IMG/VR virus record: IMGVR_UViG_3300006056_000014
Span: 1-37,314 of that record
Strand: one strand, 5' to 3'
DNA: 37,314 nucleotides
Origin: a virus
Part shown: positions 5,585 to 37,314 of the stretch, piece by piece
How the letters are laid out: every line of letters starts with the position of its first letter
Numbering within the stretch: the first letter of the stretch is position 1
Notes under the pieces: model-generated
The model's input: only the letters and a program-made list of their open reading frames with translations
What the model was told of the DNA's origin: nothing
The model's database searches: none
Position numbers and translations under genes: made by a program

Positions 5585-8198
5585 TCGCGTCTCTGCCTTC
5601 TCGGCCCACTGCGTCACGATTCGCGACCCGTTCCATCCGCTGCGCCATCGTGAGGTGGTGCGGCTGGACGGCCCTGGCCCAATCTCGGCATTGGCGCCGA
5701 CGACGACTCAGCCGTTCATCATCATGCGCAACGGGCAGGCCCTACTGCGCAAAGACTGGAATCAGACGGTCAGCGACGGCGACCTGTTGGCGGTAGTGCT
5801 GCTCCCGCAGGGCGGTCGCGGTGGCTCTGACGTGCTGCGTATTGTGCTGATGGTGGTTATTGCGGTTTTTGCCTATCAGGTTGCCCCATGGGTTGGTGGG
5901 CAATTTGGTATTACGTCGGCAGGGGGGATTGCTGCAATCCAGGGTGGTATCGGGATTCTTGGTTCTGCGCTCGTCAATGCCATATTGCCCCCGCAGGCCG
6001 CGGCTAATAGCGGATCTGGCAACAACAAGGCGGCCTCTCCAACGTACAACCTGGCCGCGCAGGGAAATCAAGCCCGTATCGGTGCGGCGATCCCTATCCA
6101 GTACGGCCGGCTTCGTTCTTATCCGGACTTCGCCGCGGCTCCCTACGTCGAATACCAAGGCAACGAGCAGTACCTGTACCAGCTGCTGTGTATTGGCATT
6201 GGCGAATATGCCATCGAGCAGATCCTGATCGAAGATACCGATATCGGCAACTTCGAGGAAGTTCAGTACGAGATCGTTGGGCCGAACGAGACTCTTGATC
6301 TGTTTCCCGCCGCTGTCGTCACTGCTGGCGAGGTCGCTGGCCAGGACATGGTCTATGACACGGCGGTCGGGCCGTTCATCAGCAACAACGCCGGAACCAC
6401 GGCCACCAAGCTGGCGCTCGATATCGTTCTTCCCCGCGGCCTGTACCACCTCAACAATTCTGGCGCCCTGCTTGTACGGAGTATCACCTTCACAGCCGAG
6501 GCGCGGCAGGTCGATGACAACGGTACGCCGATCGGCAGCTGGATTACCCTCGGTGAGGAAACCATCGAGGCTGCCACCTCAACGCCGCAGCGCCTGTCCT
6601 ACAACTACCAAGTCACCGCTGGTCGCTATGAAGTCAAGGTGACGCGGACCAGTGAAAAGGATGAGGACACGGCCACTGCCAATGACATCGTCTGGGCTGG
6701 TCTGCGTGCCTATCTCATCAGCGATTCGACATTCGGCAACGTGACGCTGCTGGCGGTTCGCATCAGAGCGACGAACAATCTGTCGCAGCAATCATCCCGC
6801 AAGATCAATGTCATCGCCACGCGCAAGCTGCACTACTGGAACGGTTATGCGTGGGCTGGCCCGGTGGCGACCCGTTCTATTGCCTGGGCGCTGGCCGATG
6901 CCTGCAAGACGGTGGGTATTCCGGATAACCGGATGGATCTCGACGGCCTTCTGGCACTGGAAGCGACGTGGGCGGCTCGTGGCGATACCTTCAACGCCCG
7001 ATTCGACAATACCAGCACCTTCTGGGATGCCTTGACCAAGATCGCCTTGGCAGGTCGGGCCAAGCCGTTCAAGCAAGCCGGCATCGTGCATTTCCGTCGC
7101 GACGAGGCCGTTTCCCTGCCGGTGGCCATGTACTCGATGCGCAACATCATTCGCGGCTCGTTCTCGATCGAGTTCCTGACGCCGACCGATGAGACGGCCG
7201 ACGCGGTCGAAGTGACCTACTTCGACGAGACGACGTGGAAATTCCGCACCCTGCTGTGCAAGCTGCCGGATTCCACTGCCGAGCGACCGGCAAAGATCGA
7301 GTACTTCGGTGTGACCAACCGTCAGCAGGTCTATGAGTACGGCATCTACATGGCCGCGGCCAATCGCTATCGCCGGATGCCGATCTCCCTGCAGACCGAG
7401 ATGGAAGGTTTTATTCCGTCGTTTGGCGATCTGGTGGCGATCTCGCACGACATGCCGCAATGGGGCCAGGGGGCTGATGTTGTCGATTGGGACGAAGACA
7501 CGCTAACCATGACATTGAGCGAGCCGCTGGTTTTTATCGGCACCGGCAACCACTACGCCGGCCTTCCTCGCCGGGACGGGTCGGTATCAGGGCCGTACGT
7601 GGTCCGGTCGGGTGCTGCCGAAGATCAGATCGTATTCACTGTGCCACCTGATTTCACGCCATATACCGGTCAGGATGAGGTGCGCACGCAGGTCATCTTC
7701 GGTCCCGGTGAGGCCTGGTATCAACCGGCCCGGGTGCTGGCGATCCGCCCGAAGGATGAATACACGGTCGAGCTGGTCTGCATCAACGAAGACCCGTCGG
7801 TGCACACCGCCGAACTTGGGATGCTTGCCCCGGCCATCAACCATTCGCAACTGCCAGCAACCCCGAAGGCGCCGGAGGTGTCTGGGCTGATCGCCCGATC
7901 GGCACCGGGTCAGCCAGACAAGATGGTCATCAGCTGGCGCCCGTCGCCAGGCGCAGAGCGCTATCTGGTCGAGCAATCGGCAGACGGTCTCGTCTGGACA
8001 CGCGTTGGCGACACGACAGCCAACAACTACACCGGTCAGGCGCTGTATGGCGCCCAGACCAAAGTGCGCGTGGCGGCCATTGGGGCGCTGCGTGGATCCT
8101 GGGCAAGCATCAATTACGCCCTTGAATCCGATTACATGTGGAACGCCAATGCGGCAACGCCGATGTGGTCTTCCGATAGCAATCCGATGTGGGGTTAA
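5577..8198 (+). CDS. Tail tip/host specificity protein; gpI-like N-terminus fused to a gpJ-like body with a C-terminal FN3 domain
   Basis: The N-terminal ~190 aa mirror lambda gpI: a ubiquitin-like part, a Gly-rich hydrophobic stretch, and the ...NLAAQGNQARIGAAIPIQYGRLR motif. The central region resembles gpJ. An FN3-like segment is PEVSGLIARSAPGQPDKMVISWRPSPGAERYLVEQS... Confidence 0.8.
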   Translation: MADRVSAFSAHCVTIRDPFHPLRHREVVRLDGPGPISALAPTTTQPFIIMRNGQALLRKDWNQTVSDGDLLAVVLLPQGGRGGSDVLRIVLMVVIAVFAYQVAPWVGGQFGITSAGGIAAIQGGIGILGSALVNAILPPQAAANSGSGNNKAASPTYNLAAQGNQARIGAAIPIQYGRLRSYPDFAAAPYVEYQGNEQYLYQLLCIGIGEYAIEQILIEDTDIGNFEEVQYEIVGPNETLDLFPAAVVTAGEVAGQDMVYDTAVGPFISNNAGTTATKLALDIVLPRGLYHLNNSGALLVRSITFTAEARQVDDNGTPIGSWITLGEETIEAATSTPQRLSYNYQVTAGRYEVKVTRTSEKDEDTATANDIVWAGLRAYLISDSTFGNVTLLAVRIRATNNLSQQSSRKINVIATRKLHYWNGYAWAGPVATRSIAWALADACKTVGIPDNRMDLDGLLALEATWAARGDTFNARFDNTSTFWDALTKIALAGRAKPFKQAGIVHFRRDEAVSLPVAMYSMRNIIRGSFSIEFLTPTDETADAVEVTYFDETTWKFRTLLCKLPDSTAERPAKIEYFGVTNRQQVYEYGIYMAAANRYRRMPISLQTEMEGFIPSFGDLVAISHDMPQWGQGADVVDWDEDTLTMTLSEPLVFIGTGNHYAGLPRRDGSVSGPYVVRSGAAEDQIVFTVPPDFTPYTGQDEVRTQVIFGPGEAWYQPARVLAIRPKDEYTVELVCINEDPSVHTAELGMLAPAINHSQLPATPKAPEVSGLIARSAPGQPDKMVISWRPSPGAERYLVEQSADGLVWTRVGDTTANNYTGQALYGAQTKVRVAAIGALRGSWASINYALESDYMWNANAATPMWSSDSNPMWG

Positions 8199-8200
8199 CC

Positions 8201-9424
8201 ATGAATCTATCACCATCCTCGTCTGCCACTTCTCCGACCGCTACCGAAGGCGACGTCAAAAACTTTCTGACCAACGTCCGCGACTACATCGCTACGTTGC
8301 TTGGTGCTGATACATCCAATAAATCGGCTGTTCTCACCGCCCTGACGGCGCCGCTCAATAGCCGGATCGACAAAACAGCAGCCTATACGGTCGTCGCGGC
8401 CGATCGCGGCAAGGTGATCAACTGCACCGGAACCGGTGGCTGGGATTTGACCATCACGGCTGCGGCAACGCTGGGCGATGGCTTTGTATTCGCGGCGGTC
8501 AACAGGACGACCGGGGCGATCACGATCAATCCGAACCTGAGCGAGCAGGTGGCAGGCGTCACTACCTACGCCATGCAGCCTGGCGAGTCGGTGATTGTGT
8601 ATTGCACCGGCTCGGCATTCGAGTTGTTCGGCAATTCGCCGAAGCGCTCCGATATACAGACATTTACGTCCAGCGGCACCTGGATCAAGCCCCCTGCAGC
8701 GCCGGCAAACTCCCTGGTGATTGTCGAGACGTGGGGTGGCGGTGGTAGTGGCGGCAAGGGGTCGTCGGATAAGTCTGGCGGTGGTGGCGGTGGTGGCGAG
8801 TACGCCTGCGACATTTACCCGCTTTCTGCGTTCAGCACCACAGAGACCGTCACGATCGGCGCCGGTGGTACGGCCGTTACGGCGGCTTCAACCAACGGTA
8901 ATCCTGGTGGGAATACGACAGTCGGTGCGCTGCCCATTGCCTACGGCGGCGGCGGTGGTGCGAAGTGGGGAGGCAACGCGCCGGCTTCGCCCGGTGGCGG
9001 CGGTGGCGGTGGCGGCGGCGATGTGTCTGGCGGCACCAACGGCCTCGGCGCTAACGGCGGCATGCGGGCAACGGCCCCGGGTGGCCTTGGCGAACTTGGC
9101 GGGATAAGAAATGCCACTACGCCAGCCCCTGGGATTAATGCTGGCGGTGGCGGCGGTGGCGGTGGCGGCGGTACATCAAGTGGTGGCGCCGACGGCGGCA
9201 ACACGATCAAGGGCGGCGCCGGTGGTGGCGGTGGCGGCCGATCTACAGGCGACCCTGCCGGCGACGGCGGCATTTCAAATTACGGCGGCAATGGCGGCGC
9301 CGGGTCTGTCGATTCCGCGTCGGCAACGGCCGGTTCTTTCCCGGGTGGTGGCGGCGGCGGCTCAGAAAACGGCACCAGCGGTGCCGGTGGAAACGGCAAG
9401 GCAGTCATCACTGTGATTTGGTAA
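8201..9424 (+). CDS. Glycine-rich domain protein (putative tail fibre/receptor-binding accessory)
   Basis: ATG at 8201 follows the gpJ stop. FTSSGTWIKPPAAPANSLVIVETWGGGGSGG is followed by multiple poly-Gly blocks, the typical phage Gly-rich domain architecture. Confidence 0.7.
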   Translation: MNLSPSSSATSPTATEGDVKNFLTNVRDYIATLLGADTSNKSAVLTALTAPLNSRIDKTAAYTVVAADRGKVINCTGTGGWDLTITAAATLGDGFVFAAVNRTTGAITINPNLSEQVAGVTTYAMQPGESVIVYCTGSAFELFGNSPKRSDIQTFTSSGTWIKPPAAPANSLVIVETWGGGGSGGKGSSDKSGGGGGGGEYACDIYPLSAFSTTETVTIGAGGTAVTAASTNGNPGGNTTVGALPIAYGGGGGAKWGGNAPASPGGGGGGGGGDVSGGTNGLGANGGMRATAPGGLGELGGIRNATTPAPGINAGGGGGGGGGGTSSGGADGGNTIKGGAGGGGGGRSTGDPAGDGGISNYGGNGGAGSVDSASATAGSFPGGGGGGSENGTSGAGGNGKAVITVIW

Positions 9425-9434
9425 GGGGGTACAA

Positions 9435-9821
9435 ATGAGAGCAGCGCAAATTGCAAACGGGGTCGTGGTCAACGTGGTCATCGTTGATGCGATCGATGAC
9501 TTGCCCGATCTGGTCATGATCTCTGATGAATACTGGATCGGCGACCTGTACGCGGACGGAGTGTTTTCCAAGCCTGTCGAATCCATCCAAGTGCCGACGT
9601 CGGTGACCCGTCGGCAGATGAAGCTGGCCCTGCTGCAGCAGGATCTGCTCAGTACGGTCGAAGCCGCCGTCGAGGCATCGAACGACATGGCGCTCAAGAT
9701 CAACTGGTTCGATGCGCTGGATTTTCAGCGCGACAACCCGTTTGTGATTCAGATGGCTGCGCTGCTTGGTAAGAGTGACGACGATCTCGATCAGATATTC
9801 GTGCTCGCCGCATCTCTCTGA
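9435..9821 (+). CDS. Hypothetical protein (tail-fibre-adjacent)
   Basis: 128 aa ORF with an AGGGGG RBS and a clean acidic composition. Confidence 0.55.
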   Translation: MRAAQIANGVVVNVVIVDAIDDLPDLVMISDEYWIGDLYADGVFSKPVESIQVPTSVTRRQMKLALLQQDLLSTVEAAVEASNDMALKINWFDALDFQRDNPFVIQMAALLGKSDDDLDQIFVLAASL

Positions 9822-9848
9822 CCAAAAAAACCAAGAAAGGAAAACAGC

Positions 9849-10205
9849 ATGCCGGAACCGCACTCAACAACCATCGGCATCGCGGTCGGTGCCGGCATCG
9901 GTCTGACCGGGACGGTCATGGGCGCCCAGGTCGATGCGCTGATCATCGGCCTGGTCGCGGCGATCCTGATCAGCTTCTGGCTGCCGACGATTGATGACCG
10001 GAAGAAGGCCGCCGCCTCGGTGGCCATGTCCTCGTTGCTGGCTGGCTATGGTTCTCCGGTCGCCGCCGCCTGGCTGGCGGCCGATCAGGCGTCGTTCAGC
10101 AACGGAAGCCCGTTGCGCCTGCTGCTGGCCATCGCCATCGGCTCGGCCACGCCAACGCTGGTGCCGGTAATCCTGGGCTGGGCAAAACGCAAGGTGGAGG
10201 CCTGA
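9849..10205 (+). CDS. Holin-like membrane protein
   Basis: 118 aa with 3-4 hydrophobic helices, an AAGGAAA RBS, located just upstream of the endolysin. Confidence 0.55.
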   Translation: MPEPHSTTIGIAVGAGIGLTGTVMGAQVDALIIGLVAAILISFWLPTIDDRKKAAASVAMSSLLAGYGSPVAAAWLAADQASFSNGSPLRLLLAIAIGSATPTLVPVILGWAKRKVEA

Positions 10206-10207
10206 TC

Positions 10208-10450
10208 ATGCTTGAGACGCTTCTCTGTGGCTTGGCCACGCTGGTTGTGTTCTGGAAGCTGATCGGCGTCGTTGGGTCGATCAACATTCATGCTTTCGAT
10301 GGTCATCCGTGGCAGTTCATCGGCCTGGCTTGTCATTGGGCGCTGGTCTGTGCCGGATCGCTGGCCACCTTGCTCGGCCTGTCGATCGGCGGGGCAATGC
10401 TGGTGGTTGGCATGGCCATGATGATTCTGTCTGATCGGAGGTCGAGATGA
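10208..10450 (+). CDS. Second small membrane protein (holin/antiholin candidate)
   Basis: 80 aa with 2-3 TM segments. Its stop overlaps the endolysin start. Confidence 0.5.
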   Translation: MLETLLCGLATLVVFWKLIGVVGSINIHAFDGHPWQFIGLACHWALVCAGSLATLLGLSIGGAMLVVGMAMMILSDRRSR

Positions 10451-13107: not shown

Positions 13108-13427
13108 GGATCCACCTCTTCACCAAGGCTGCCAGCCGGGAAGAAAACGAGGGCCGGGACAGCGGTTTCAGTTTTGGCCGATTTTTCGGCCTGACCGTAG
13201 CATTCATCCTCGGCATCCCGATCCGGGAAGCCTTCCAGCGGCAGGTACATGACCATGTTTTCGGACAGGCAGGCACGGTGCATGGGCGTGATGTGCGGCC
13301 TGTCATGGCGCAGGGTGACGTGCCGGGCGCAGTTGTCGGCTTGAAAGCAGGTGTCGCCTTCATAGAGGCCGTGGGCGAGGCAGCGCTGATAGTCAGCAGG
13401 AAGCGGCAGTGGCATTGGTTTTTGCAT
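13104..13427 (-). CDS. Cys/His-rich hypothetical protein
   Basis: The internal ATG at 13427 gives MQKPMPLPLPADYQRCLAHGLYEGDTCFQADNCARH... (107 aa). The upstream part of the listed 190-aa ORF is the out-of-frame shadow of the RT gene. Confidence 0.5.
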   Translation of the reverse strand: MQKPMPLPLPADYQRCLAHGLYEGDTCFQADNCARHVTLRHDRPHITPMHRACLSENMVMYLPLEGFPDRDAEDECYGQAEKSAKTETAVPALVFFPAGSLGEEVDP

Positions 13428-14544
13428 GGCTTTTCCGGTAGGTCTTGGAGAGGTCTGATTTGATGCTGTGGCCGCGCTGGCGCAGGGTGTTGGCGAGCGT
13501 GGCGCGGTCGTGATGGCTGTGTGATGCCTGACGCAGCAGGCCGAAGTAGCTGTTGGCGGTTTCGAACAGATCCTCGGCCGGCAGGCTGCGGGTACGGATG
13601 ATGGCGTCGTTGAAGGTGCGGCGGCGCAGGGTGCGGCGATGGGGCTTGATGACCTGGCCGACGAAGTCGATGCCACGGTCGATGGGCTGCAGGATGGTTT
13701 TCTTGGGGTTGATACGGGCGGCCAGCACCTTTTCGAGCATGTCCTCGATATGGTCCTTGGCGTCGTTTAGCCATTGCGGCGATTGGTGAAGCAGTACGAA
13801 GTCGTCGACGTAGCGGATGTAGTGCCGGCAGTGCAGTTCGTGCTTGACGAATTGGTCGAGCACGTCGAGATAGACGTTGGCGAAGAACTGGCTGCTTAGG
13901 TTTCCGATCGGAAGGCCCATGTGGGCTGGCTGGTTGGTCAGTCGCTTGTGCGGCGGGACCAGGGCGAGTTGTTGTGGATCGCCGTGCAGTTCGTAGTTTT
14001 GCCGCGGGTCGTGGAATAGCACGGCCTCGGTGAGCTGCAGCCACCAGTGCTCGTGGATGTGGCGGGCGAGCAGGCGCTGCAGGATGCGCTTGTCGATACT
14101 GACGAAGAAGTTGGCGAGATCGAGCTTCAGGTAGAAGGCTGGCTTGGTCCAGTTCTGGGTGATGCTGCGCACCTTGGCTTCGAGCCGTTCGGCGGCGTAG
14201 AGCGTGCCGCGACCTGGAATGCAGGCGCAGCTGTCGGCGATGAAGCGGGCGTAGAAGCGCGGGGCGATGTGGTTGTGCAGCAGGTGGTGCACGATGCGGT
14301 CGCGGAACTGGCCGGCCCAGACTTCGCGGGCCTTGGGGCGGGTGATGACGAAACAGATGGAGCGGCCGGGCTGGTAGCTGCCGTCTTCGAGTTCGTCGTG
14401 AAGGTCGCGCAGGTTGTTTTCCAGGTTGGCTTCGAAGGCCAGCGCACTGGCGCTGTTGCGCTTTGTGCGTCGGCAATCGAAGTAGGCCTGGGTCAGTTCG
14501 GTGAAGGTGAAGTCAGCGGGGGCTTTCCAATCTGCGGACGGCAC
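13393..14544 (-). CDS. DGR reverse transcriptase (start uncertain: GTG 14544 or 14550, or upstream ATGs up to 14793)
   Basis: LPIGNLSSQFFANVYL, YIRYVDDFVLL (YxDD box) and a GIDFVGQVI thumb region. The gene is adjacent to the TR and Avd. Confidence 0.92.
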   Translation of the reverse strand: MPSADWKAPADFTFTELTQAYFDCRRTKRNSASALAFEANLENNLRDLHDELEDGSYQPGRSICFVITRPKAREVWAGQFRDRIVHHLLHNHIAPRFYARFIADSCACIPGRGTLYAAERLEAKVRSITQNWTKPAFYLKLDLANFFVSIDKRILQRLLARHIHEHWWLQLTEAVLFHDPRQNYELHGDPQQLALVPPHKRLTNQPAHMGLPIGNLSSQFFANVYLDVLDQFVKHELHCRHYIRYVDDFVLLHQSPQWLNDAKDHIEDMLEKVLAARINPKKTILQPIDRGIDFVGQVIKPHRRTLRRRTFNDAIIRTRSLPAEDLFETANSYFGLLRQASHSHHDRATLANTLRQRGHSIKSDLSKTYRKSHAKTNATAASC

Positions 14545-14625
14545 GAGCACGGAGCTCGTTGTTCTTGTGGTTGTTGTTCTGGTTGCCGTTGTTGAAGTTC
14601 TGATACCAAGCCCAGCCGGACTCGG
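14528..14625 (-). repeat. DGR template repeat (TR), 98 nt
   Basis: On the minus strand it encodes ESGWAWYQNFNNGNQNNNHKNNELRARAVRRL with nine AAC codons. It is the adenine-bearing master copy of the three VRs. Confidence 0.93.
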
Positions 14626-14767
14626 CCCCATCGTGCTTTCTACGTCGCCCTGCCGACTGTTCAGCGGGGAAACTGCGCCGGACCTTTCCTGCGTGCGGCA
14701 GGAGGTCTCCGTGGTGCGCATGTCGGTGGCCTCGTGAGCCAGCGGCACGACCAGATTGAATGTGCGC

Positions 14768-15142
14768 TCAGTCATGGCGGCCTTGGCCTCCATGAAGCGG
14801 GCGCGACGCGGATTTGCGCCACCCGTTGGCCTGCTTCCCGATGCTGGTGGTAAGTTCGATGGCCTGGGCGTAGGCTGCCTTGCTGATCAGGCGCTTGTCC
14901 ATGGACAGGCGCAGCATCAGTTCGGCGACCTGCAGGCGCTCGACCAGTTCCAGAAGATGGGGTGCCTTGTCCTGGGCGACGTTGGCCCGGAAGATCAGCA
15001 CCGTGATTTCGATGCACTCGGTGCTGATCTTGTCGCCGATTGATCGCTTGAAGTCTCGCTGCATGTTCTTGACGAGACTGGTCACGACATCGAGCAGGTC
15101 GTAGGCGACCTTGTAGATGGGAAGATTGGTATGGGTGGCCAT
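14768..15142 (-). CDS. avd: Accessory variability determinant (Avd), four-helix-bundle protein
   Basis: 124 aa with LPIYKVAYDLLDVV...IGKQANGWRK, typical of the Avd/23S-IVS protein family. The gene order is target-avd-TR-RT. Confidence 0.88.
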   Translation of the reverse strand: MATHTNLPIYKVAYDLLDVVTSLVKNMQRDFKRSIGDKISTECIEITVLIFRANVAQDKAPHLLELVERLQVAELMLRLSMDKRLISKAAYAQAIELTTSIGKQANGWRKSASRPLHGGQGRHD

Positions 15143-15160
15143 GCTGACTAAATGACTGAA

Positions 15161-15640
15161 TTACTCAATGATCAATCTGCGGACGGCACGAGCACGGAGA
15201 TCGTAGTCCTCGTGGTAGCGGTCCTGGTGGCCGAGGACGAAGTCCTGACACCAAGCCCAGCCGGACTCGGATTCGTGGGCTTCGCAGGACCAGTACCAGC
15301 GGACTTCGAATTGATCCTTGAGGTTGGCGTAGAGCAGGGATTGCTCGCGGCGGGTGGGCAGGCTTGCAACGTATTCGCCACCTTGTTTGGCGGCCCATTC
15401 CATGGCTTTGTCCCAGGTGATGTCGTCCGCCTGGCTGGGGAGCAGCACCAGGTGATGGCTCGGCTCGCCATCCTTGCCGACGATCAGTCCGGCGTAGTGC
15501 TCGCCGGGGAGTAGATGGATGGTGACTTCCGGGAAGTAGAACTCGGCTGCAGGCTGGTTGGCCTGGGCCTCGAAGGTGGCGATCTTGGCGGCTAGTGCAT
15601 CGGCATCGGACTTGATCGATTCAAGCGTTATGGGGGTCAT
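15161..15640 (-). CDS. DGR variable protein 1 (DUF1566/C-type-lectin-like) with a 45-aa N-terminal extension
   Basis: 159 aa. The C-terminus ...WYWSCEAHESESGWAWCQDFVLGHQDRYHEDYDLRARAVRRLIIE is encoded by VR1. Confidence 0.9.
   Translation of the reverse strand: MTPITLESIKSDADALAAKIATFEAQANQPAAEFYFPEVTIHLLPGEHYAGLIVGKDGEPSHHLVLLPSQADDITWDKAMEWAAKQGGEYVASLPTRREQSLLYANLKDQFEVRWYWSCEAHESESGWAWCQDFVLGHQDRYHEDYDLRARAVRRLIIE
15173..15270 (-). repeat. DGR variable repeat VR1
   Basis: Ungapped 98-nt match to the TR. There are 14 differences at TR adenines and one G-to-T change (plus-strand position 15200). Confidence 0.95.
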
Positions 15641-15664
15641 AGCGTCCTCGAAATGACTGAATGA

Positions 15665-16024
15665 TTAAATAGGCAATCTGCGGACGGCACGAGCACGGAG
15701 CTCGTCGTCCTTGAGGGTGTCGTGCTGGAGGCCGATGCCGAAGCTCTGATACCAAGCCCAGCCGGACTCGGTGTGGTGAGTCTCATTGCTCCAGTACCAG
15801 TCTTTTTGAAACTGGTCGCGGTGGTTGGCCCACAGCATGGCTTGCTCGACGCGGGTCGGCAGATCGCCGCCGATGCTCTTTGCCCAGTCCATCTTGGCTT
15901 GCCAGGTGGCGGCGTCGTTGTCGCCGGGCAGCAGGATGACGTGATAGATGTCGCCTGCTGTGTCGCCGATGGCGCCGACGTAGATCTCGCCTTCGGCGAG
16001 CGGGGGGAGTTGAAGTTGTTGCAT
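15665..16024 (-). CDS. DGR variable protein 2 (single DUF1566-like domain)
   Basis: 119 aa. ...ATWQAKMDWAKSIGGDLPTRVEQAMLWAN...TESGWAWYQSFGIGLQHDTLKDDELRARAVRRLPI. Confidence 0.9.
   Translation of the reverse strand: MQQLQLPPLAEGEIYVGAIGDTAGDIYHVILLPGDNDAATWQAKMDWAKSIGGDLPTRVEQAMLWANHRDQFQKDWYWSNETHHTESGWAWYQSFGIGLQHDTLKDDELRARAVRRLPI
15674..15771 (-). repeat. DGR variable repeat VR2
   Basis: Ungapped 98-nt match to the TR, with 12 differences, all at TR adenines. Confidence 0.95.
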
Positions 16025-16038
16025 GGGGGCTCCTGTGG

Positions 16039-16629
16039 TTAAAGTTTGTTCCAGTGCTGCGTGGTGCGTACTTCGTGAATGACCGTGGCGAAGGCGACGG
16101 CAACCTGGTCGTTGTCGACCAGCGATTTGACGGCTGCGTGTTTCATGGCGTCGGCCTCGTTCTCAAAAATCAGGTAGCTGTCGGCGACGATGTAGCGTTG
16201 GCGGATCGGTTGGTCAGAGGCCGGCTCGGCGGGGGTTTCGTCCCGCTTTGCCGCCTCAATGACTGTTGCCTTGCCCTCGGCCCGAGGTGTTGCTTGCCCG
16301 ACGGGCTTAGCCGATGCTCGGCTGCGGCTGTTATTGGCCTCACCTGCCGCTGGGGTCTCGCTGGGTTGCTTCTTTGGTTTGCTGGGTTCTTCCTGAACTT
16401 CAGGGCGCTTCGACTCTTCTTCGTGGTGGCGTCGACCTTTCGGCGTGATCTGCCAAGCCAGTTCGTGGCGGCTGCTGTCCTCGACCTGCTTGATCTGGCC
16501 GGCGTTCTTCATCGCATTGCACGTCCAGCGCAGCTTGTTGCGCGGGATCTTGGTAGCGCGCTCAAGGTCGTCGTAGGTGCTGGTGCCAAGCTTGACCAGC
16601 GCTTCCAGGATTGATTGAACTTGAGTCAT
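16039..16629 (-). CDS. Winged-helix-like DNA-binding protein with a disordered linker and a C-terminal domain
   Basis: 196 aa. The N-terminus ILEALVKLGTSTYDDLERATKIPRNKLRWTCNAMKNAGQIKQV looks like a wHTH, followed by a P/E/K/A-rich linker. Confidence 0.55.
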   Translation of the reverse strand: MTQVQSILEALVKLGTSTYDDLERATKIPRNKLRWTCNAMKNAGQIKQVEDSSRHELAWQITPKGRRHHEEESKRPEVQEEPSKPKKQPSETPAAGEANNSRSRASAKPVGQATPRAEGKATVIEAAKRDETPAEPASDQPIRQRYIVADSYLIFENEADAMKHAAVKSLVDNDQVAVAFATVIHEVRTTQHWNKL

Positions 16630-16636
16630 GCTTGCC

Positions 16637-16909
16637 TCAGTAAGAGCGGGGAGCTGGGTCAGGTAGGCGGCGGTCGATCATGTCGGCCGAGCGGGTATCG
16701 AGCCATTCGTTCCGGCGCCTGTTGGCGTCGTCGCGGGCTGCGTGGGCGGCGAGCAGCTGGTGAACGGTGGCGGCGATCTCGGCGTTGAGCGTCTTCTCGG
16801 CGTTGATCAGATCGGAGAGCATTTGCTCAAGGTCCTCGATGTGCTGCTCGTGCGACTTGACCTGCAGGCCAAACAAGTTGGCGTAGATCCAGTTGATCAG
16901 GCGGCGCAT
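16637..16909 (-). CDS. Hypothetical coiled-coil protein
   Basis: GGAGG RBS 7 nt before ATG 16909: MRRLINWIYANLFGLQVKSHEQHIEDLEQ... (90 aa). Confidence 0.55.
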   Translation of the reverse strand: MRRLINWIYANLFGLQVKSHEQHIEDLEQMLSDLINAEKTLNAEIAATVHQLLAAHAARDDANRRRNEWLDTRSADMIDRRLPDPAPRSY

Positions 16910-17097
16910 GGGATGTCCTCCAGTTGGGCGGACGTCGGGCTCTTGACCTTGACGGCAATCTTGGTCCAGCCGGCGGGAACAATTGGGCTGACAACGGTTC
17001 GTTGGCCGTTGCTGATGATGTGCATGCCGCGGGCCTTGGCGGCCTGGGCCACTTCGTCGAGCAGGGCGTCTTCGCTGAAGATAAGGGCGGTGATCAT
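16897..17097 (-). CDS. Hypothetical protein
   Basis: 66 aa, overlaps both neighbours (translational coupling). Confidence 0.45.
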   Translation of the reverse strand: MITALIFSEDALLDEVAQAAKARGMHIISNGQRTVVSPIVPAGWTKIAVKVKSPTSAQLEDIPCAA

Positions 17098-17471
17098 GCT
17101 GCCTCCGCAATTGCCATCGGCTCTTGGTACATATTGATGGGAACAGTGAAGTCGAGAAGATGGATGGAAGAGGTGACCGAGTTGCCGATGTCGCCGGGAT
17201 CTTCGGTACGTATGGACAGACCGAGCGCATGAATGGCAACCCGTGCCCGAGCGTGGTTTGAAAGGATGAGGACGCGCACATTGACTTCGCCGCTTTGGTG
17301 GCTAGTTACGCAAGCAGCGGCACTGGTGTAGTACTCATCGGCGACCTTGTTGTTGATTTCCTCGGCCAAAGCTTCGGCTTCTGCGATCAGGCCAGCGGCG
17401 GCAATAAGTCCGACCCGGCGATCTGCAAATTCCTTGTCAAGTCTCGCCAGTTCTTGTTCCAGCATCCCCAT
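17094..17471 (-). CDS. Hypothetical protein
   Basis: 125 aa with a strong GAGGAGG RBS. Confidence 0.6.
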   Translation of the reverse strand: MGMLEQELARLDKEFADRRVGLIAAAGLIAEAEALAEEINNKVADEYYTSAAACVTSHQSGEVNVRVLILSNHARARVAIHALGLSIRTEDPGDIGNSVTSSIHLLDFTVPINMYQEPMAIAEAA

Positions 17472-17481
17472 GATTGCCTCC

Positions 17482-17655
17482 TCAGATCAGTGCCGGCTGA
17501 ACGGGCGCCGACTTTCCCTTGTTGCCAGCCTTCGCGCCGCAGGTGATGGCGATGCGAATGGCCGGGATGCTCATTGCCTTCTCGAAGCTCATGCCCGTGA
17601 ACGACAGGCCGGTGCGACGGTAGAAGGCGCGCTGCTGTTGTTCGGTGTGGGTCAT
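17482..17655 (-). CDS. Small hypothetical protein (57 aa, below the ORF-track cutoff)
   Basis: GAGG RBS then ATG 17655: MTHTEQQQRAFYRRTGLSFTGMSFEKAMSIPAIRIAITCGAKAGNKGKSAPVQPALI, stop at 17482-17484. Confidence 0.45.
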   Translation of the reverse strand: MTHTEQQQRAFYRRTGLSFTGMSFEKAMSIPAIRIAITCGAKAGNKGKSAPVQPALI

Positions 17656-17679
17656 GTCAGCCTCTAAATTGATGAATGA

Positions 17680-18024
17680 CTAAATGACCAATCTGCGGAC
17701 GGCACGAGCACGGAGCTCGTTGAGCTTGCGGTCGTCGTACTGGTCGCCGTAGCGGAAGTTCTGATACCAAGCCCAGCCGGACTCGGATTGGTTCGACCAG
17801 TAGGCGCTCGGCTTGAATTCATCCTTGGCGGTGGCAAACATCAGCGCCAGTTCGACGCGGGTGGGCAGATCGCCGCCTTGTTCCTTGGCCCAGGCCATTG
17901 CGTCGTTCCAGTTGGCCTCGATGTCGCCAGGCAGAAGGATGATGTGGGTGGTAGTGCCGTCGGCAGAGACGATGCCGCCGATATAGCGTTCGCCTTCGTT
18001 GAGTTCTGGGGTGGTGGTGATCAT
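17680..18024 (-). CDS. DGR variable protein 3 (single DUF1566-like domain)
   Basis: GGAG RBS before ATG 18024: MITTTPELNEGERYIGG...SESGWAWYQNFRYGDQYDDRKLNELRARAVRRLVI (114 aa). It is a paralogue of proteins 1 and 2. Confidence 0.9.
   Translation of the reverse strand: MITTTPELNEGERYIGGIVSADGTTTHIILLPGDIEANWNDAMAWAKEQGGDLPTRVELALMFATAKDEFKPSAYWSNQSESGWAWYQNFRYGDQYDDRKLNELRARAVRRLVI
17689..17786 (-). repeat. DGR variable repeat VR3 (remote, 1.9 kb from VR2)
   Basis: Ungapped 98-nt match to the TR, with 10 differences, all at TR adenines. Confidence 0.95.
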
Positions 18025-18044
18025 GGTTGGCTCCGTTAAATATC

Positions 18045-18091
18045 TGTAACTATGGTTACACATAGAAAAGCAAAAAGCAACCATGGTTACT
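18045..18091. promoter_or_regulatory. OL-like pair of repressor operator palindromes upstream of the leftward DGR operon
   Basis: TGTAAC-TATG-GTTACA (18045-18060, perfect) and AGCAAC-CATG-GTTACT (18076-18091). The motif is the same as in the cI/cro intergenic region. Confidence 0.6.
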
Positions 18092-18143
18092 GTTGGAGCG
18101 AAAAAAAACCGCCGGGTGGCGGTCGTTCTCGGGTTGATATTGG

Positions 18144-18623
18144 CTATCTAATTGCCCACTTGAGGTCGTACATCTCTTTTGTGCAATGCTTGTTCCAGTC
18201 AGAGGGCTTTTGGCTACTTCTGTTTTTGAGAACGACAAGAAATTCTCGGTTAATTCCACCAAACCCATTTTTGGCCCGGTATTCAACACAGGCAACCGTT
18301 GAGTCATCATTGATGTGCATGGTTTCAATGATCAGAGAATCTGGGTCTCGAAGTGTCTTTTTGAGGTTTTCAGCAACTGCCCTGGCCAATCCAAACCTGA
18401 GAGTTTCGCTGGCATCCTTTGCTTTTTCGGCGGCTGTTTTTTCTGCAGGCCGCTGGGTAGTTTGGTTCCCGACGATAGATATTGCGATGACTAGCAGCAT
18501 GAATCCAACGAGAACAATTTTTGTTGCGCTGGGTGGGCGCTTGACTTTGGCGCCGCACTTTGGGCAGGTTGTTGCTTCGCTGCTTACCTGATTTGTGCAT
18601 TCATGGCATGTTATGAGGCTCAT
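18144..18623 (-). CDS. Zinc-ribbon, single-pass membrane protein downstream of cI (possible exclusion/immunity function)
   Basis: MSLITCHECTNQVSSEATTCPKCGAKV, then TM IVLVGFMLLVIAISIV, then a ~95-aa extracytoplasmic domain. Confidence 0.6.
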   Translation of the reverse strand: MSLITCHECTNQVSSEATTCPKCGAKVKRPPSATKIVLVGFMLLVIAISIVGNQTTQRPAEKTAAEKAKDASETLRFGLARAVAENLKKTLRDPDSLIIETMHINDDSTVACVEYRAKNGFGGINREFLVVLKNRSSQKPSDWNKHCTKEMYDLKWAIR

Positions 18624-18684
18624 AAATAATGTCCTTATCGTATGCCGGTATTCTAACCCCAGACCAAGCGCAGTCGAGAGGGGG

Positions 18685-19146
18685 TTAGTCTTTTTGCTCG
18701 CTGCGCTTCTCGAAAGCTGCAAGTGCTCTGTCAGCCAACCAGATCATCTGTTCCCGATCCTTTGAATCTGCAACATGGTAGGCCTCGATAAGTTTTCTGA
18801 TATTGGGCTCCGGTTCGCGTGCTGACAATTCAGTCACTACTGGTGTGGCTGAATACGCCACCCTTGGTTCGCCATTGAATGGTGTGTTGTCGATATTTGG
18901 CTGGGTGTTTGCTTGGTGGCATTCGTCAGCGACAACGATCATCCCGCGTAATAGCAGGCCGACATCGACGTTGTACTTGTCGCAGAAGGCCAGAAGGTTT
19001 CCAAGCTTCATGTTTGCCGTATCGCCGGTTTCCCATTTCAGGTAACCCTGTCGAGAAACACCAACCTTGCCGGCGGCCTTTGCGGGGCTATCTCCAGCAT
19101 CGGTTCGAATTTTTTCGATCAGCGAGGCAAGGCTGCTTTTTTCCAC
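18685..19146 (-). CDS. cI: CI-like repressor (XRE-family HTH), probable GTG start
   Basis: HTH segment SPAKAAGKVGVSRQGYLKWETGDTANMKLGNLLAFCDKYNVDVGLLLRG. ORF codons upstream of GTG 19146 merely translate the operator repeats. Confidence 0.75.
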   Translation of the reverse strand: MEKSSLASLIEKIRTDAGDSPAKAAGKVGVSRQGYLKWETGDTANMKLGNLLAFCDKYNVDVGLLLRGMIVVADECHQANTQPNIDNTPFNGEPRVAYSATPVVTELSAREPEPNIRKLIEAYHVADSKDREQMIWLADRALAAFEKRSEQKD

Positions 19147-19209
19147 GTAAGTATGGTTACATACTGGCACGTAACTATGGTTTGCATGTACCGTGCAACT
19201 ATGGTTACA
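19146..19209. promoter_or_regulatory. OR-like tripartite operator (three 16-bp sites spaced exactly 24 bp apart)
   Basis: CGTAAG-TATG-GTTACA (19146-19161), CGTAAC-TATG-GTTTGC (19170-19185) and TGCAAC-TATG-GTTACA (19194-19209), located between the divergent cI and cro genes. Confidence 0.7.
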
Positions 19210-19211
19210 AT
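19182..19211 (+). promoter_or_regulatory. Candidate PR promoter (TTGCAT-18 nt-TACAAT), which would give a near-leaderless cro mRNA
   Basis: The hexamers overlap operators 2 and 3. The cro ATG at 19219 is 8 nt past the -10 element and has no SD sequence. Confidence 0.4.
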
Positions 19212-19218
19212 GTCCGTT

Positions 19219-19416
19219 ATGGATCATTCTGACTCTCCAATCATCGATCGTTTGGGCGGTAATTCCGCCTTGGCAAAGATGTTCTCTATTTCTTCTCAGG
19301 CCGTTTCAAAGTGGCGAAAAGAGGGGATTCCTGAGGCTCGCCGTATGTATCTGAAGTTGGCGCATCCGAGTGCGTTCGATGAGCTTGAGTCCAGCCAGCG
19401 CAAAGAGGCCGCCTGA
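19219..19416 (+). CDS. cro: Cro/YdaS-like HTH regulator
   Basis: MDHSDSPIIDRLGGNSALAKMFSISSQAVSKWRKEGIPEARRMYL... (65 aa), divergent from cI. Confidence 0.7.
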   Translation: MDHSDSPIIDRLGGNSALAKMFSISSQAVSKWRKEGIPEARRMYLKLAHPSAFDELESSQRKEAA

Positions 19417-25012: not shown

Positions 25013-25652
25013 GCCCGCTTGCCCCAGGACCGAGCGCTAGGTCAAATTTTTTCGTGCGGTAGTTATTGGGGGAGGGGGTACCCCCTGCCAGTAGCTCTGC
25101 CGTGCAAACGTGTGCACCAAGAAGACTGGATATTCGGACCGATGGGCTCGGTTGGATTGGACAATGTCAGGAAGCCCATACCCGACATCCCTCGAATGTT
25201 CAGCCTTGTTGGTGTAAGCGCAGGCTGATGCGCGAATAAAAACCGTGGTGATTCCAGCAGAGGCGAGAGGCGACGCCAGAAAGCGGGCCAGTGCAGCGGA
25301 CGCACATTAAAAACACCAGCCACGGGAAACACTCAAAGCCGGAGATCAGCACCGGCCACCAGCAACATCTGAAAGCCGGGCTTAGCGCGGATGTAGCCAA
25401 TAGGCAGCGCGTAGCTTCGAGGGTAGCCGCCTCGTTAATCGGGTCAATCAAAGGCTCAACACTAGCGACGGTTTGGCTCCCTCCAAACGCCGGATCACGT
25501 AACCGGCAAGAATAAAACCCTGAGCCAGAGTGCTCGTGCCAAGGGTGACGATGGTGACCCGGGCCGCTTCGGCGGCCCGGTGATCCTGAACCATCCCGCC
25601 GAGCCAGCGAGATCCTGAGAACCAGAATCTCCCCCTGGTGGGGAAACCATCC

Positions 25653-25675
25653 AACCGCCTTAGGGCGGTTTTTTC
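25653..25675 (+). terminator. Intrinsic terminator, member 1 of a repeated AACCGCC-TNNG-GGCGGTT-T(n) family
   Basis: AACCGCC TTAG GGCGGTT TTTT, 17 nt upstream of the terS ATG. Confidence 0.65.
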
Positions 25676-33108: not shown

Positions 33109-34452
33109 ATGAGCTTCGGCGTTAATTCGTTTGGCGTTGGTTCGTTCGGATCACTAGCTGAGGTGTCTGGTGGCGGCTCGTCCGTCACCTTGACCATTCA
33201 GGACACAGCTCAATCGCAGACGCTGGAAGCGTTCTCGCTATCATCCAACGGCGCATCCGATCTAGGTATTCAGGATGTATCCCAGGCGCAATCCATCGCC
33301 AATGCTACGCTCAGCATCATCCCTGCAGTCGATTTCAAAGTCGCTATCCTCGGTGATTCAAACGCCTCCGGTCGAGGTTCTTTCTCTCAGACCAACAGCG
33401 CATCCAATGCGTGGCTTTACGATGTGTCCGGGAACATAGTGACACTTGCTGATCCATGGGATTCTGGCTCTGATACCTATTCGGTGTTGAGCGACAGCGG
33501 TAGCGCTGGCGGCTCCTATGTTCAGCATCTGGCAGACCTGTTGTCTGCAGCAGGCAAGTCAACGCTATGGATACCTGCCAATAAGGGGGGCATAAAGGCG
33601 TCTGACTGGGCCTACAGCACCAACACAACTACCTGCTACGGCGCCATGAAGGCGAGGATTGATGCGGCTGGCGGGGCTGACGTCATCATCATACATCTGG
33701 GGGCAAATGATGCGATTAGTGCTGTTTCGCAAGCGACATTCACTAGCCAAATGAATGCGATTATCGGGCATCTGGTCACAGACTTCCCGACTGCAAAAAT
33801 CTACTTGCAGAAGATTCACCACAACAGCTCAGCAACCACAACCAATATCGACAATATCAGGGCTGCTGTTGACGATATCTGGAACGGGTCTAGCGGCTGC
33901 CGACGCGGCGCCGACCTTGAAGGGATCTCGACCGGTGTCCATTACGGGCAGACTGGCAACACGACGACCTGCACTTCTGAGCTCAACGAAGTCGCCTTGC
34001 GCACGTTCAATGCGGCATTTGGTGCTGGCCTTGTTGTCCAAGACATAGGCCAGGCGCAAGCTGTGTCATCGGTGACTTTAGCTATCGAAGCGGTGCTGAA
34101 TGTTGCTGACATAGGGCAATCTCAGTCTATCGATGCCATCAGTCTTTCTGCGGCAACCACGCTGTCAATATCCGACCTGTTCCAGGATGGCATGCTTGAA
34201 AATGTGTCGATCTATGACGATTCATCGCTCAACCTGCAGATTTTCAGCGTCGCGCAGATGCAGGAAATCGATTCAATAGCTTTGTCGTCGTCGGCATGGC
34301 TATCGATATCTGGCATGGGGCAGGCTAGTCAGATCAGCCACGTTGCGCTATCGCTCCCCGGCCAGTTCGTTCGCGCCCCGGCCGGTAGCGGCCCAAGCAT
34401 TATCCGGCCAGTCGGCCAGCGCCCGCCCAACACCGGCGGGCAGCGAATCTGA
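33109..34452 (+). CDS. SGNH/GDSL-type hydrolase flanked by ~22-aa peptide repeats
   Basis: Block I VAILGDSNASGRG, block III IIIHLGANDA. There are two N-terminal and five C-terminal copies of an L.IQD..Q.Q.....LS-like repeat. Confidence 0.65.
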   Translation: MSFGVNSFGVGSFGSLAEVSGGGSSVTLTIQDTAQSQTLEAFSLSSNGASDLGIQDVSQAQSIANATLSIIPAVDFKVAILGDSNASGRGSFSQTNSASNAWLYDVSGNIVTLADPWDSGSDTYSVLSDSGSAGGSYVQHLADLLSAAGKSTLWIPANKGGIKASDWAYSTNTTTCYGAMKARIDAAGGADVIIIHLGANDAISAVSQATFTSQMNAIIGHLVTDFPTAKIYLQKIHHNSSATTTNIDNIRAAVDDIWNGSSGCRRGADLEGISTGVHYGQTGNTTTCTSELNEVALRTFNAAFGAGLVVQDIGQAQAVSSVTLAIEAVLNVADIGQSQSIDAISLSAATTLSISDLFQDGMLENVSIYDDSSLNLQIFSVAQMQEIDSIALSSSAWLSISGMGQASQISHVALSLPGQFVRAPAGSGPSIIRPVGQRPPNTGGQRI

Positions 34453-34457
34453 CCACC

Positions 34458-34479
34458 AACCGCCTCCGGGCGGTTTTTT
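34458..34479 (+). terminator. Intrinsic terminator, member 2 of the repeated family
   Basis: CCACCAACCGCC TCCG GGCGGTT TTTT. Confidence 0.65.
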
Positions 34480-36437: not shown

Positions 36438-36457
36438 CACCGTAGTACTCCACCACC

Positions 36458-36480
36458 AACCGCCTTCGGGCGGTTTTTTT
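36458..36480 (+). terminator. Intrinsic terminator, member 3 of the repeated family
   Basis: CCACCACCAACCGCC TTCG GGCGGTT TTTTT. Confidence 0.65.
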
Positions 36481-37153: not shown

Positions 37154-37314
37154 ATGAGCCTTGCTGAAAAACTCCGCAAGGCTCGCGAAGTGAAGGTTGA
37201 AGCCGCCGGCTTCACCTTCACCATTCGCCGGCCAACCGCGCTGGAAATGATCGAACTGCAAAAACAGTCCGCCGCCCGGGCTGTCCTGCCTTTCGTTGTC
37301 GGCTGGGAAGGTGT
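37154..37314 (+). CDS. Tail assembly chaperone (gpG-like), 5' part; continues at nt 81 of the window
   Basis: ATG 37154 gives MSLAEKLRKAREVKVEAAGFTFTIRRPTALEMIELQKQ... The last 80 nt duplicate nt 1-80. Confidence 0.8.
   Translation, partial: MSLAEKLRKAREVKVEAAGFTFTIRRPTALEMIELQKQSAARAVLPFVVGWEG
37235..37314. repeat. Terminal direct repeat copy 2 (identical to 1-80)
   Basis: Exact 80-nt identity with the window start. Confidence 0.95.

Follow-up and report, generated by a model that had tools for sequence, protein, structure and literature searches.

The window analysed here, which is the whole 37,314-nucleotide (nt) DNA of the IMG/VR record IMGVR_UViG_3300006056_000014 (positions 1-37,314), almost certainly carries a complete and currently active diversity-generating retroelement (DGR) of a cI/Cro-type siphophage, whose host is probably a betaproteobacterium of the Rhodocyclales. 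In this element, one template repeat (TR) feeds three variable repeats (VRs) that form the 3′ ends of three paralogous open reading frames (ORFs), in the company of a reverse transcriptase (RT) gene and of the accessory gene avd. Such an arrangement had been proposed in a first-pass annotation made from the sequence, and it found independent support in the RT, in the Avd and in the adenine-specific pattern of the TR/VR pairs. The components of the cassette are the following.

13393-14550, minus strand: DGR reverse transcriptase gene, with a conserved core at 13393-14523 and a probable GTG start at 14550 or 14544
14528-14625, minus strand: TR, 98 nt, with 28 adenines and nine AAC codons in the target frame
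14768-15142, minus strand: avd accessory gene, 124 amino acids (aa), four-helix-bundle family
15161-15640, minus strand: target gene 1, 159 aa, with VR1; weak match to Pfam Lcl_C/DUF1566 and match to phrog_4245
15173-15270, minus strand: VR1, ungapped 98-mer with 15 differences from the TR
15665-16024, minus strand: target gene 2, 119 aa, with VR2; 1830 homologues, several of them named DUF1566
15674-15771, minus strand: VR2, ungapped 98-mer with 12 differences from the TR
17680-18024, minus strand: target gene 3, 114 aa from the ATG at 18024, with VR3; first gene after the operator-like sites
17689-17786, minus strand: VR3, ungapped 98-mer with 10 differences from the TR

Adenine-specific repeats, reverse transcriptase and natural variation

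The coordinates of the four repeats, their ungapped length of 98 nt and the 15, 12 and 10 differences that the first-pass annotation had counted by hand were reproduced exactly, and an independent repeat detector recovered the identical three TR/VR pairs. TR adenines are the site of 36 of the 37 TR-VR differences, and all three other bases are used at these positions (A>G 18, A>T 10, A>C 8), the sole remaining difference being G71>T in VR1. Given the 28 adenines of the 98-nt TR, the probability of finding at least 36 of 37 differences at A is 6.9e-19; at the level of sites, A occupies 19 of the 20 variable positions (Fisher P = 1.4e-12). Tabulated by TR base, the substitutions are adenine-specific and not spread over the four bases. 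The first 21 and the last 27 nt are constant in all copies, as previously noted, and the window contains exactly four copies of the 3′ constant 30-mer, with 0 expected. In the comparison made by the detector, the mismatches between TR and VRs are adenine-only while those between one VR and another use all four bases, which identifies the TR as the donor.

Translated in the target frame, the TR reads ESGWAWYQNFNNGNQNNNHKNNELRARAVRRL, with the nine AAC codons already recognised in the earlier reading, and no variable adenine falls at a third codon position. The accompanying estimate of 15^9 (about 3.8e10) peptide variants per target proved too low: among the observed alleles the adenines of TAT, CAC, AAG and GAG codons vary too, so this figure is a lower bound on the potential diversity. 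In VR1 alleles, the change at G71 (window 15200-15202, TR position 71) converts GAG to GAT or GTT, and it breaks a 6-bp hairpin (ACGAGC/GCTCGT) shared by the TR, VR2 and VR3. Other rare non-A changes are C53>A in another VR1 allele and two C>G in the VR3 allele of a related locus (L065).

The minus-strand RT matches Pfam RVT_1 (4.4e-14), and of the solved structures it matches best 8ub7_A, a reverse transcriptase chain with 328 residues (E 1.8e-33, 119.5 bits). The next structures are group II intron RTs, at E 7e-8 or worse and with 35 bits at best, and no retron RT chain occurs among the solved-structure matches at E <= 0.001. From the length, the sequence and the residue numbering of 8ub7, which fit a cryo-electron microscopy preprint (10.1101/2023.10.23.563531), we infer that this structure is bRT, the RT of Bordetella phage BPP-1. 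Both signature motifs quoted in the first-pass annotation are present, with the DGR-typical IGxxxSQ motif (as LPIGNLSSQ) and YVDD read in an intact RT ORF, and the equivalents of bRT I181 and G182 are conserved. The affiliation of the RT is based on these structure-profile matches and motifs. NCBIfam and PADLOC contain no DGR-RT model, and in both collections the RT matches generic or sub-threshold RT models only; in particular, PADLOC shows weak similarity to many defence-associated RT (DRT) and retron models, none of which, as a specific model, exceeds the generic RT model. Furthermore, the 124-aa Avd-like four-helix protein described earlier is present as an ORF and passes the threshold of the Pfam bAvd family (PF22296, 46.3 bits against a cut-off of 40).

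The evidence for activity consists of differences between assemblies. Most alleles came through exact-protein look-up, and scanning viral and metagenome contigs for the pattern contributed few more. A target-2 protein identical to that of the window is encoded on 26 public contigs; in five homologues (P0002-P0006), all differences from this protein lie at positions encoded by the VR, and a further one (P0007) combines VR-encoded differences with one change outside the VR. Over 5-12 kb, seven contigs match the window with 99.6-100% identity, one JGI sample and several ENA samples being their sources, and the TR is identical in all the near-identical contigs that reach it. Among these contigs we counted at least four alleles of VR1 and at least three at the VR3 position, and the operon mismatches with respect to the window fall in VRs, with 5 out of 5 over 5.5 kb in one contig (L067, all in VR1) and 23 out of 23 over 6 kb in another (L063). 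For the 10 distinct VR alleles, 115 of the 122 substitutions relative to the TR are at adenines. Polymorphism at A sites in natural populations, which the first-pass annotation had suggested looking for, is therefore present at the level of assemblies, with VRs that vary at TR adenines and a constant TR. Since contigs of 99.6-100% identity share the TR and yet carry different VRs, the element diversifies in nature, and the DGR is genuine, complete and apparently active. Its value lies in offering a natural example, in which a complete circular genome is accompanied by many near-identical metagenomic siblings that display VR turnover around a constant TR.

Three contigs (L062, at 6224-10351, L063 and L066) contain an extra tandem copy of a 2,015-bp unit, which gives them four targets. 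This unit extends from just after VR3 to the end of VR2, thus comprising five small genes and target 2, the equivalent region of the window being 15631-17786. The two copies of the 1,917-nt body show 100% identity, and the three samples have different middle VRs. The best account of these features is an unequal crossing-over between VRs with subsequent diversification by the DGR, an assembly artefact being less likely, and it suggests that unequal VR-VR recombination expands the target array.

The cassette might instead be a relic DGR, in which the parts are still recognisable, mobilisation has been lost and the VR differences are old and vertically inherited. The sharing of an exact target-2 protein by as many as 26 contigs would agree with such a history, as would the fact that VR2 and VR3 are identical in several contigs. 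However, contigs 99.6-100% identical over 5-12 kb differ almost only within VRs and have the same TR, the middle VR of a duplication recent enough to show two 100% identical copies over 1,917 nt differs among three samples, and the RT retains an intact ORF with its YVDD, all of which make a relic very improbable.

An ordinary paralogous family deserves even less credit, to the point that we consider it practically dismissed. According to this explanation, the 98-nt repeats would come from duplication and vary by mutation, selection or gene conversion, beside an RT of the retron, group II intron or defence type. The targets are indeed paralogous, with 50-55% identity, recombination between VRs apparently occurs, as in the 2,015-bp duplication, and PADLOC reports the weak similarities to DRT and retron RT models mentioned above. 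Nevertheless, the fourth copy of the repeat, namely the TR, lies outside every target gene and has A at each variable site, and the mismatches between TR and VRs are A-only (P = 7e-19 for the adenine bias), while those between VRs use all bases. Moreover, the 119.5 bits of the RT to 8ub7_A (the presumed bRT) compare with 35 bits for the best group II RT, an Avd is present, and no specific retron or DRT model scores above the generic RT model.

RNA architecture and candidate recipient site

Two kinds of element accompany the repeats, namely an RNA that abuts the TR and a short motif that follows each VR.

14624-14806, minus strand: RT-15 RNA (Rfam RF03018), 183 nt, from the 3′ end (last codons) of avd to the first bases of the TR
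15150-15169, minus strand: AT-rich VR-flank motif, copy 1 (ATTGAGTAATTCAGTCATTT), overlapping the stop codon of target 1
15651-15670, minus strand: AT-rich VR-flank motif, copy 2 (ATTTAATCATTCAGTCATTT), after VR2
17666-17685, minus strand: AT-rich VR-flank motif, copy 3 (ATTTAGTCATTCATCAATTT), after VR3

The covariance-model match of RT-15 reaches 175.8 bits, compared to a gathering score of 82, over the full length of the model (1-192), and its helices covary in an 18-sequence alignment of the clade. RT-15 is found directly 5′ of the TR in 24 out of 24 loci with RT identity >= 62% (the window and 23 others tested), and it is absent in 8 out of 8 tested DGR loci with RT identity <= 53%. In Weinberg et al. 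(2017), RT-1 to RT-19 are described as motifs located close to RT genes, of which RT-10 alone is attributed to a DGR, with the speculation that other RT motifs function in DGRs (PMC5737381); a search of the available literature library found no paper connecting RT-15 with DGRs. We propose RT-15 as a candidate cis-acting accessory RNA of the DGR in this clade, where it may serve as a scaffold for RT and Avd or as the 5′ boundary of cDNA synthesis. On the opposite side of the TR there is no spacer before the RT, since the homology to bRT begins about eight codons after the TR (the alignment with 8ub7_A begins at bRT residue 14), and the Rfam RT-10 model, which corresponds to the BPP-1 spacer motif, gave no match at E <= 0.1. 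An orphan Rfam motif thus gains a context, as an RNA located 5′ of the TR in a DGR clade devoid of a TR-RT spacer, and this association bears on the generality of the cis-priming architecture of BPP-1.

The first-pass annotation correctly placed an RT gene on the minus strand, but the 466-aa RT ORF (13393-14793), which takes in both the TR and the RNA that precedes it, is probably an over-call. In 21 of 22 sequences (the window and 21 relatives), no stop codon interrupts the RT frame over the 250-495 nt that precede the RT core, the exception being L024, where stop codons occur; therefore, gene callers output an "RT" of 460-466 aa that includes the TR. An ATG overlaps the avd stop codon (CATGACTGA). 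Third-codon-position periodicity, on the other hand, is strong in the RT core (entropy 1.25 versus about 0.68), starts only from 14523 downstream and is absent in RT-15 and in the TR, which indicates that the RT-15/TR stretch is conserved as RNA. Translation of TR and RT-15 as an N-terminal extension of the RT was rejected as a requirement on account of this lack of codon periodicity and of the stop codons in L024. The most likely start of the RT is a GTG, at 14550 or 14544, that falls within the constant 3′ portion of the TR. In several relatives, no ATG, GTG or TTG is available as a start near the RT core.

Other possible RNA structures were considered and set aside. At 37-107 nt downstream of the TR, the window contains a stable stem-loop (z = -4.3) that shows no covariation in the 18-sequence alignment, and the same alignment gave no covariation for a possible pairing across the TR; both were treated as by-products of coding sequence. 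The only 100%-paired candidate of the pairing scan, GCAGUU-GAYUGC, joins two near-invariant segments, one of which is coding, and was not taken as evidence.

As for the presumed recipient site, the TR and the VRs share a GC-rich 3′ constant segment (CTCCGTGCTCGTGCCGTCCGC) and differ past CAGATTG, where the VRs continue into the AT-rich motif and the TR runs straight into the RT coding sequence. The pattern of the VR flank (ATTKARTMATTCAKYMATTT) occurs in the window at the three VR flanks only, against 0.03 occurrences expected. Across the clade, this motif of about 25 nt is conserved after every VR and absent after the TR, and it is thus a candidate determinant of the recipient site. Judging from this distribution, the AT-rich motif would be the recipient-specific part of a site resembling the initiation of mutagenic homing (IMH) sequence, and the GC-rich constant segment and the AT-rich motif together plausibly constitute an IMH variant.

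From these elements, and by homology with known DGRs, the following course of events can be proposed. Following the model of BPP-1, transcription of the minus-strand operon would yield an RNA that covers RT-15, the TR and the beginning of the RT message, probably early after infection or induction, given the operator-like palindromes that precede the operon. RT and Avd would then copy the TR into cDNA, misincorporating opposite template adenines, in line with the A-specific outcome observed in the repeats, while RT-15, which abuts the 5′ end of the TR, may supply scaffold or boundary functions for the RT-Avd complex. Finally, the cDNA would replace the 98-nt VR at the 3′ end of the three paralogous DUF1566/C-type-lectin-like genes by homing, the ten natural alleles representing the outcome; the AT-rich flank would mark the recipients, and the TR, which has no such flank, would act as the donor.

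Target proteins, operon and phage genome

The three targets share 50-55% identity, and each consists essentially of one DUF1566-like domain with the VR at its C terminus. Many target-2 homologues (71-92% identity) have precomputed PF07603 matches or the NCBI name DUF1566, and the profile of the target family matches the DUF1566 domain of Legionella Lcl-CTD (8Q4E) with E 0.0045, a C-terminal domain that its authors call trimeric and C-type-lectin-like (PMC11162425). The best description of the targets is that of divergent DUF1566-like proteins, for which a C-type-lectin fold is probable; among the weak Foldseek matches of the target model, many are C-type lectin domains. Reading the N termini by eye, with no prediction tool, revealed no evident signal sequence, defence-system models gave no match for the targets, and no recognised structural-protein domain was found in them. 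The only phage-family match is phrog_4245, a family without assigned function, whose longer profile of about 580 positions has this domain at its end. According to Roux et al. (2021), viral DGR targets are mostly tail proteins in some clades and otherwise "unknown" (PMC8144416).

The minus-strand operon includes, in order, target 3, five small genes, target 2, target 1, avd, the TR, the RT and three small genes. The features between target 2 and the cro-like gene are listed below.

16039-16629, minus strand: winged-helix regulator-like protein, 196 aa; weak TrmB match and PHROG transcriptional-regulator matches
16637-16909, minus strand: small gene, 90 aa; gene calls on near-identical contigs
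16897-17097, minus strand: small gene, 66 aa; gene calls on near-identical contigs
17094-17471, minus strand: small gene, 125 aa; gene calls on near-identical contigs
17482-17655, minus strand: small gene, 57 aa; gene calls on near-identical contigs
18046-18124, minus strand: control region upstream of target 3, with a terminator-like hairpin and T-run followed by two operator-like palindromes
18077-18090 and 18046-18059: operator-like palindromes upstream of target 3 (GTAACYATRGTTAC)
18107-18124, minus strand: terminator-like hairpin and T-run, from a terminator scan
18685-19227: cI-like helix-turn-helix gene
19147-19160 and 19195-19208: operator-like palindromes between the cI-like and cro-like genes (GTAACYATRGTTAC)
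19153-19416: P22-Cro-like gene, divergent from the cI-like gene

The palindrome GTAACYATRGTTAC has four copies in the window compared to 0.21 expected, and their layout, with two upstream of target 3 and two between the divergent cI-like and cro-like genes, resembles that of the lambdoid OR and OL. This suggests that the DGR operon corresponds to a repressor-controlled early-left operon. The homologous cassette of Burkholderia phage Magia, which shares its strand with the RecT, nuclease and integrase genes, fits the picture of an early operon. The position in the operon weakly favours early intracellular binders over virion-associated receptor binders as the role of the targets and poses the question of whether some phage DGRs diversify non-structural proteins. 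The cI-like gene itself is located in a low-GC island (18001-19000, GC 0.485 versus about 0.60 elsewhere) together with a gene for a 159-aa zinc-ribbon protein (18144-18623), in which a hydrophobic stretch was read by eye; this may be a moron or a superinfection-exclusion-type gene co-transcribed with the repressor.

A more ambitious synthesis, which we put forward tentatively and hold to be rather unlikely, would join these aspects. The DGR would possess a rearranged RNA architecture, where a large 5′ RT-15 takes the place of a 3′ spacer in carrying RT/Avd-binding, priming or termination functions, and would serve arrays of short DUF1566-like targets that act inside the cell as diversified binders, directed for instance at targets of host defence or takeover, and not as receptor-binding virion proteins, with a copy number that grows by VR-VR recombination. 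The part concerning intracellular binders stems from the lack of an evident signal peptide and from the location at the head of, and within, the putative repressor-controlled early operon.

Several observations weigh against the reading of the cassette as a complete and active DGR with the parts assigned above. Activity is deduced from differences between assemblies, and 7 of the 122 allele substitutions are at non-A bases. The Avd scores 48.6 bits with NCBIfam DivGenRetAVD, under the cut-off of 80. As for the targets, the Pfam PF07603 Lcl_C scores of 19.3, 20.6 and 24.8 bits are under the gathering threshold of 34.9; the AlphaFold2 target model, obtained from a 41-sequence alignment, has a predicted local distance difference test score of 68.7 with a disordered VR loop, and Foldseek against PDB and BFVD found no match at E < 0.001 for it. 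Because the model gave no significant fold match, the C-type-lectin assignment leans on weak sequence evidence. Moreover, a systematic scan in which RT-15, the 3′ end of the TR and the region downstream were examined for conserved long-range pairing found no covarying priming or stop duplex, and for this reason the roles of RT-15 and of the flank motif are offered as hypotheses. Finally, neither a GC-rich nor a significant hairpin was found after the VRs, and a consensus scan found no sigma-70-like promoter beside the operator-like palindromes.

With regard to the phage as a whole, the window shows an exact 80-bp terminal direct repeat, in which positions 1-80 are identical to 37235-37314, and it therefore represents a circularly assembled complete genome of 37,234 bp. 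The phage is of the siphovirus type, with genes for a tape-measure protein, a J-like central tail fibre, the large terminase (TerL), a portal and a major head protein. Among deposited phage genomes, no close match was obtained by megablast with the first 12 kb, which contain the tail genes. The window has no tRNA genes, and an integrase was detected neither in it nor among the Pfam marks of the near-identical contigs, despite the cI/Cro switch. In seven prophage relatives (L008, L011, L012, L018, L069, L073 and L074), tRNA genes occur downstream of the RT at a distance of 3-7 kb, which would agree with attachment sites in tRNA genes close to the DGR end of these prophages. In the late/structural region, three near-identical terminator-like elements (CCAACCGCCTYCGGGCGGTTTTTT) are found on the plus strand at 25647-25674, 34452-34479 and 36452-36479. 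Repeated glycine-codon tracts of the GGTGGCGG type occupy 8773-9240, in a 411-aa ORF downstream of the J-like tail protein, for whose equivalent in related contigs Pfam Gly_rich_2 is recorded.

Comparison with known systems

The survey of related RTs covered 57 loci from IMG/VR and 80 from genomes. Where a repeat pair was detected, with few exceptions, the TR is just upstream of the RT and is associated with one to four VRs through essentially A-only mismatches; the closest relative among the IMG/VR loci (L005) has three VRs, and another locus (L009) has four. The closest genomic relative of the RT belongs to a prophage in Dechloromonas sp. CZR5 (87% identity). At the nucleotide level, the cassette shows about 70% identity to Magia (MT701587), to Shewanella phage vB_Sb_QDWS and to several Burkholderia and Pseudomonas phages. 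The Magia record annotates an RT, an Avd-like protein and a "lectin fold domain protein, potential DGR target", and the corresponding genome announcement reports a potential DGR with targets in genes 47 and 57 (PMC7883833); in QDWS, by contrast, the counterpart is unannotated.

Magia and QDWS share with the window the order of short targets with a probable lectin fold, avd, RT-15 RNA, TR and RT, on the strand of the early, recombination and integrase genes. They also have one TR with at least two VRs, A-only mismatches and the same AT-rich motif at the VR flank. The backbone of Magia is different, as this phage is described as a myophage and the first 12 kb of the window remain without a megablast match. 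Compared to Magia and QDWS, the window phage is further distinguished by a single operon that holds its three targets, the first of them remote, by the lack of a detectable integrase and by natural variants that carry four targets.

The DGR of BPP-1 (mtd-avd-TR-brt) resembles that of the window in its homologous RT and Avd, in the avd-TR-RT order, in the C-terminal VR, in the AAC-rich TR and in the GC-rich 3′ constant segment common to TR and VR. Different from the window, with its three short DUF1566-like targets, BPP-1 has a single target, the tail-fibre protein Mtd, encoded beside the cassette. In BPP-1, a 140-nt spacer RNA (Rfam RT-10) between TR and brt primes cDNA synthesis, and a GC-rich hairpin follows the VR (PMC5737381, PMC5758913, bioRxiv 10.1101/2023.10.23.563531). 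The window has instead no spacer and no RT-10 match, with RT-15 placed 5′ of the TR and the AT-rich motif replacing the hairpin; a spacer of the BPP-1 type is a feature of the prototype and does not define DGRs in general. RF03018 is defined as a motif near RT genes, and in the clade of the window it abuts the 5′ end of a DGR TR.

In regard to the targets, Legionella LdtA (CLec2/DUF1566 "category d"; Wu et al. 2018) is comparable to those of the window in that this class of VR ends in DUF1566-like sequence. However, LdtA is a surface lipoprotein of a bacterial chromosomal DGR, whereas the targets of the window are encoded in a phage operon and, by eye, have no evident signal sequence. Wu et al. 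(2018) reported that more than one target occurs in about 15% of DGRs, that phage-associated DGRs frequently have non-adjacent targets and that short proteins with DUF1566 only make up about half of the "category d" targets (PMC5758913). Since multi-target DGRs are documented and one to four VRs per TR are normal in the clade, a TR that feeds three VRs is to be expected in this group. Thus, the DGR of the window belongs to a phage DGR clade that has already been sequenced and partly annotated, and it does not represent a novel type of system; phage DGRs with several targets of the DUF1566 type being already catalogued, as a DGR it adds little to them, apart from the modest additions of the RT-15/TR association, of the VR-flank motif and of the probable early-operon position of its targets.

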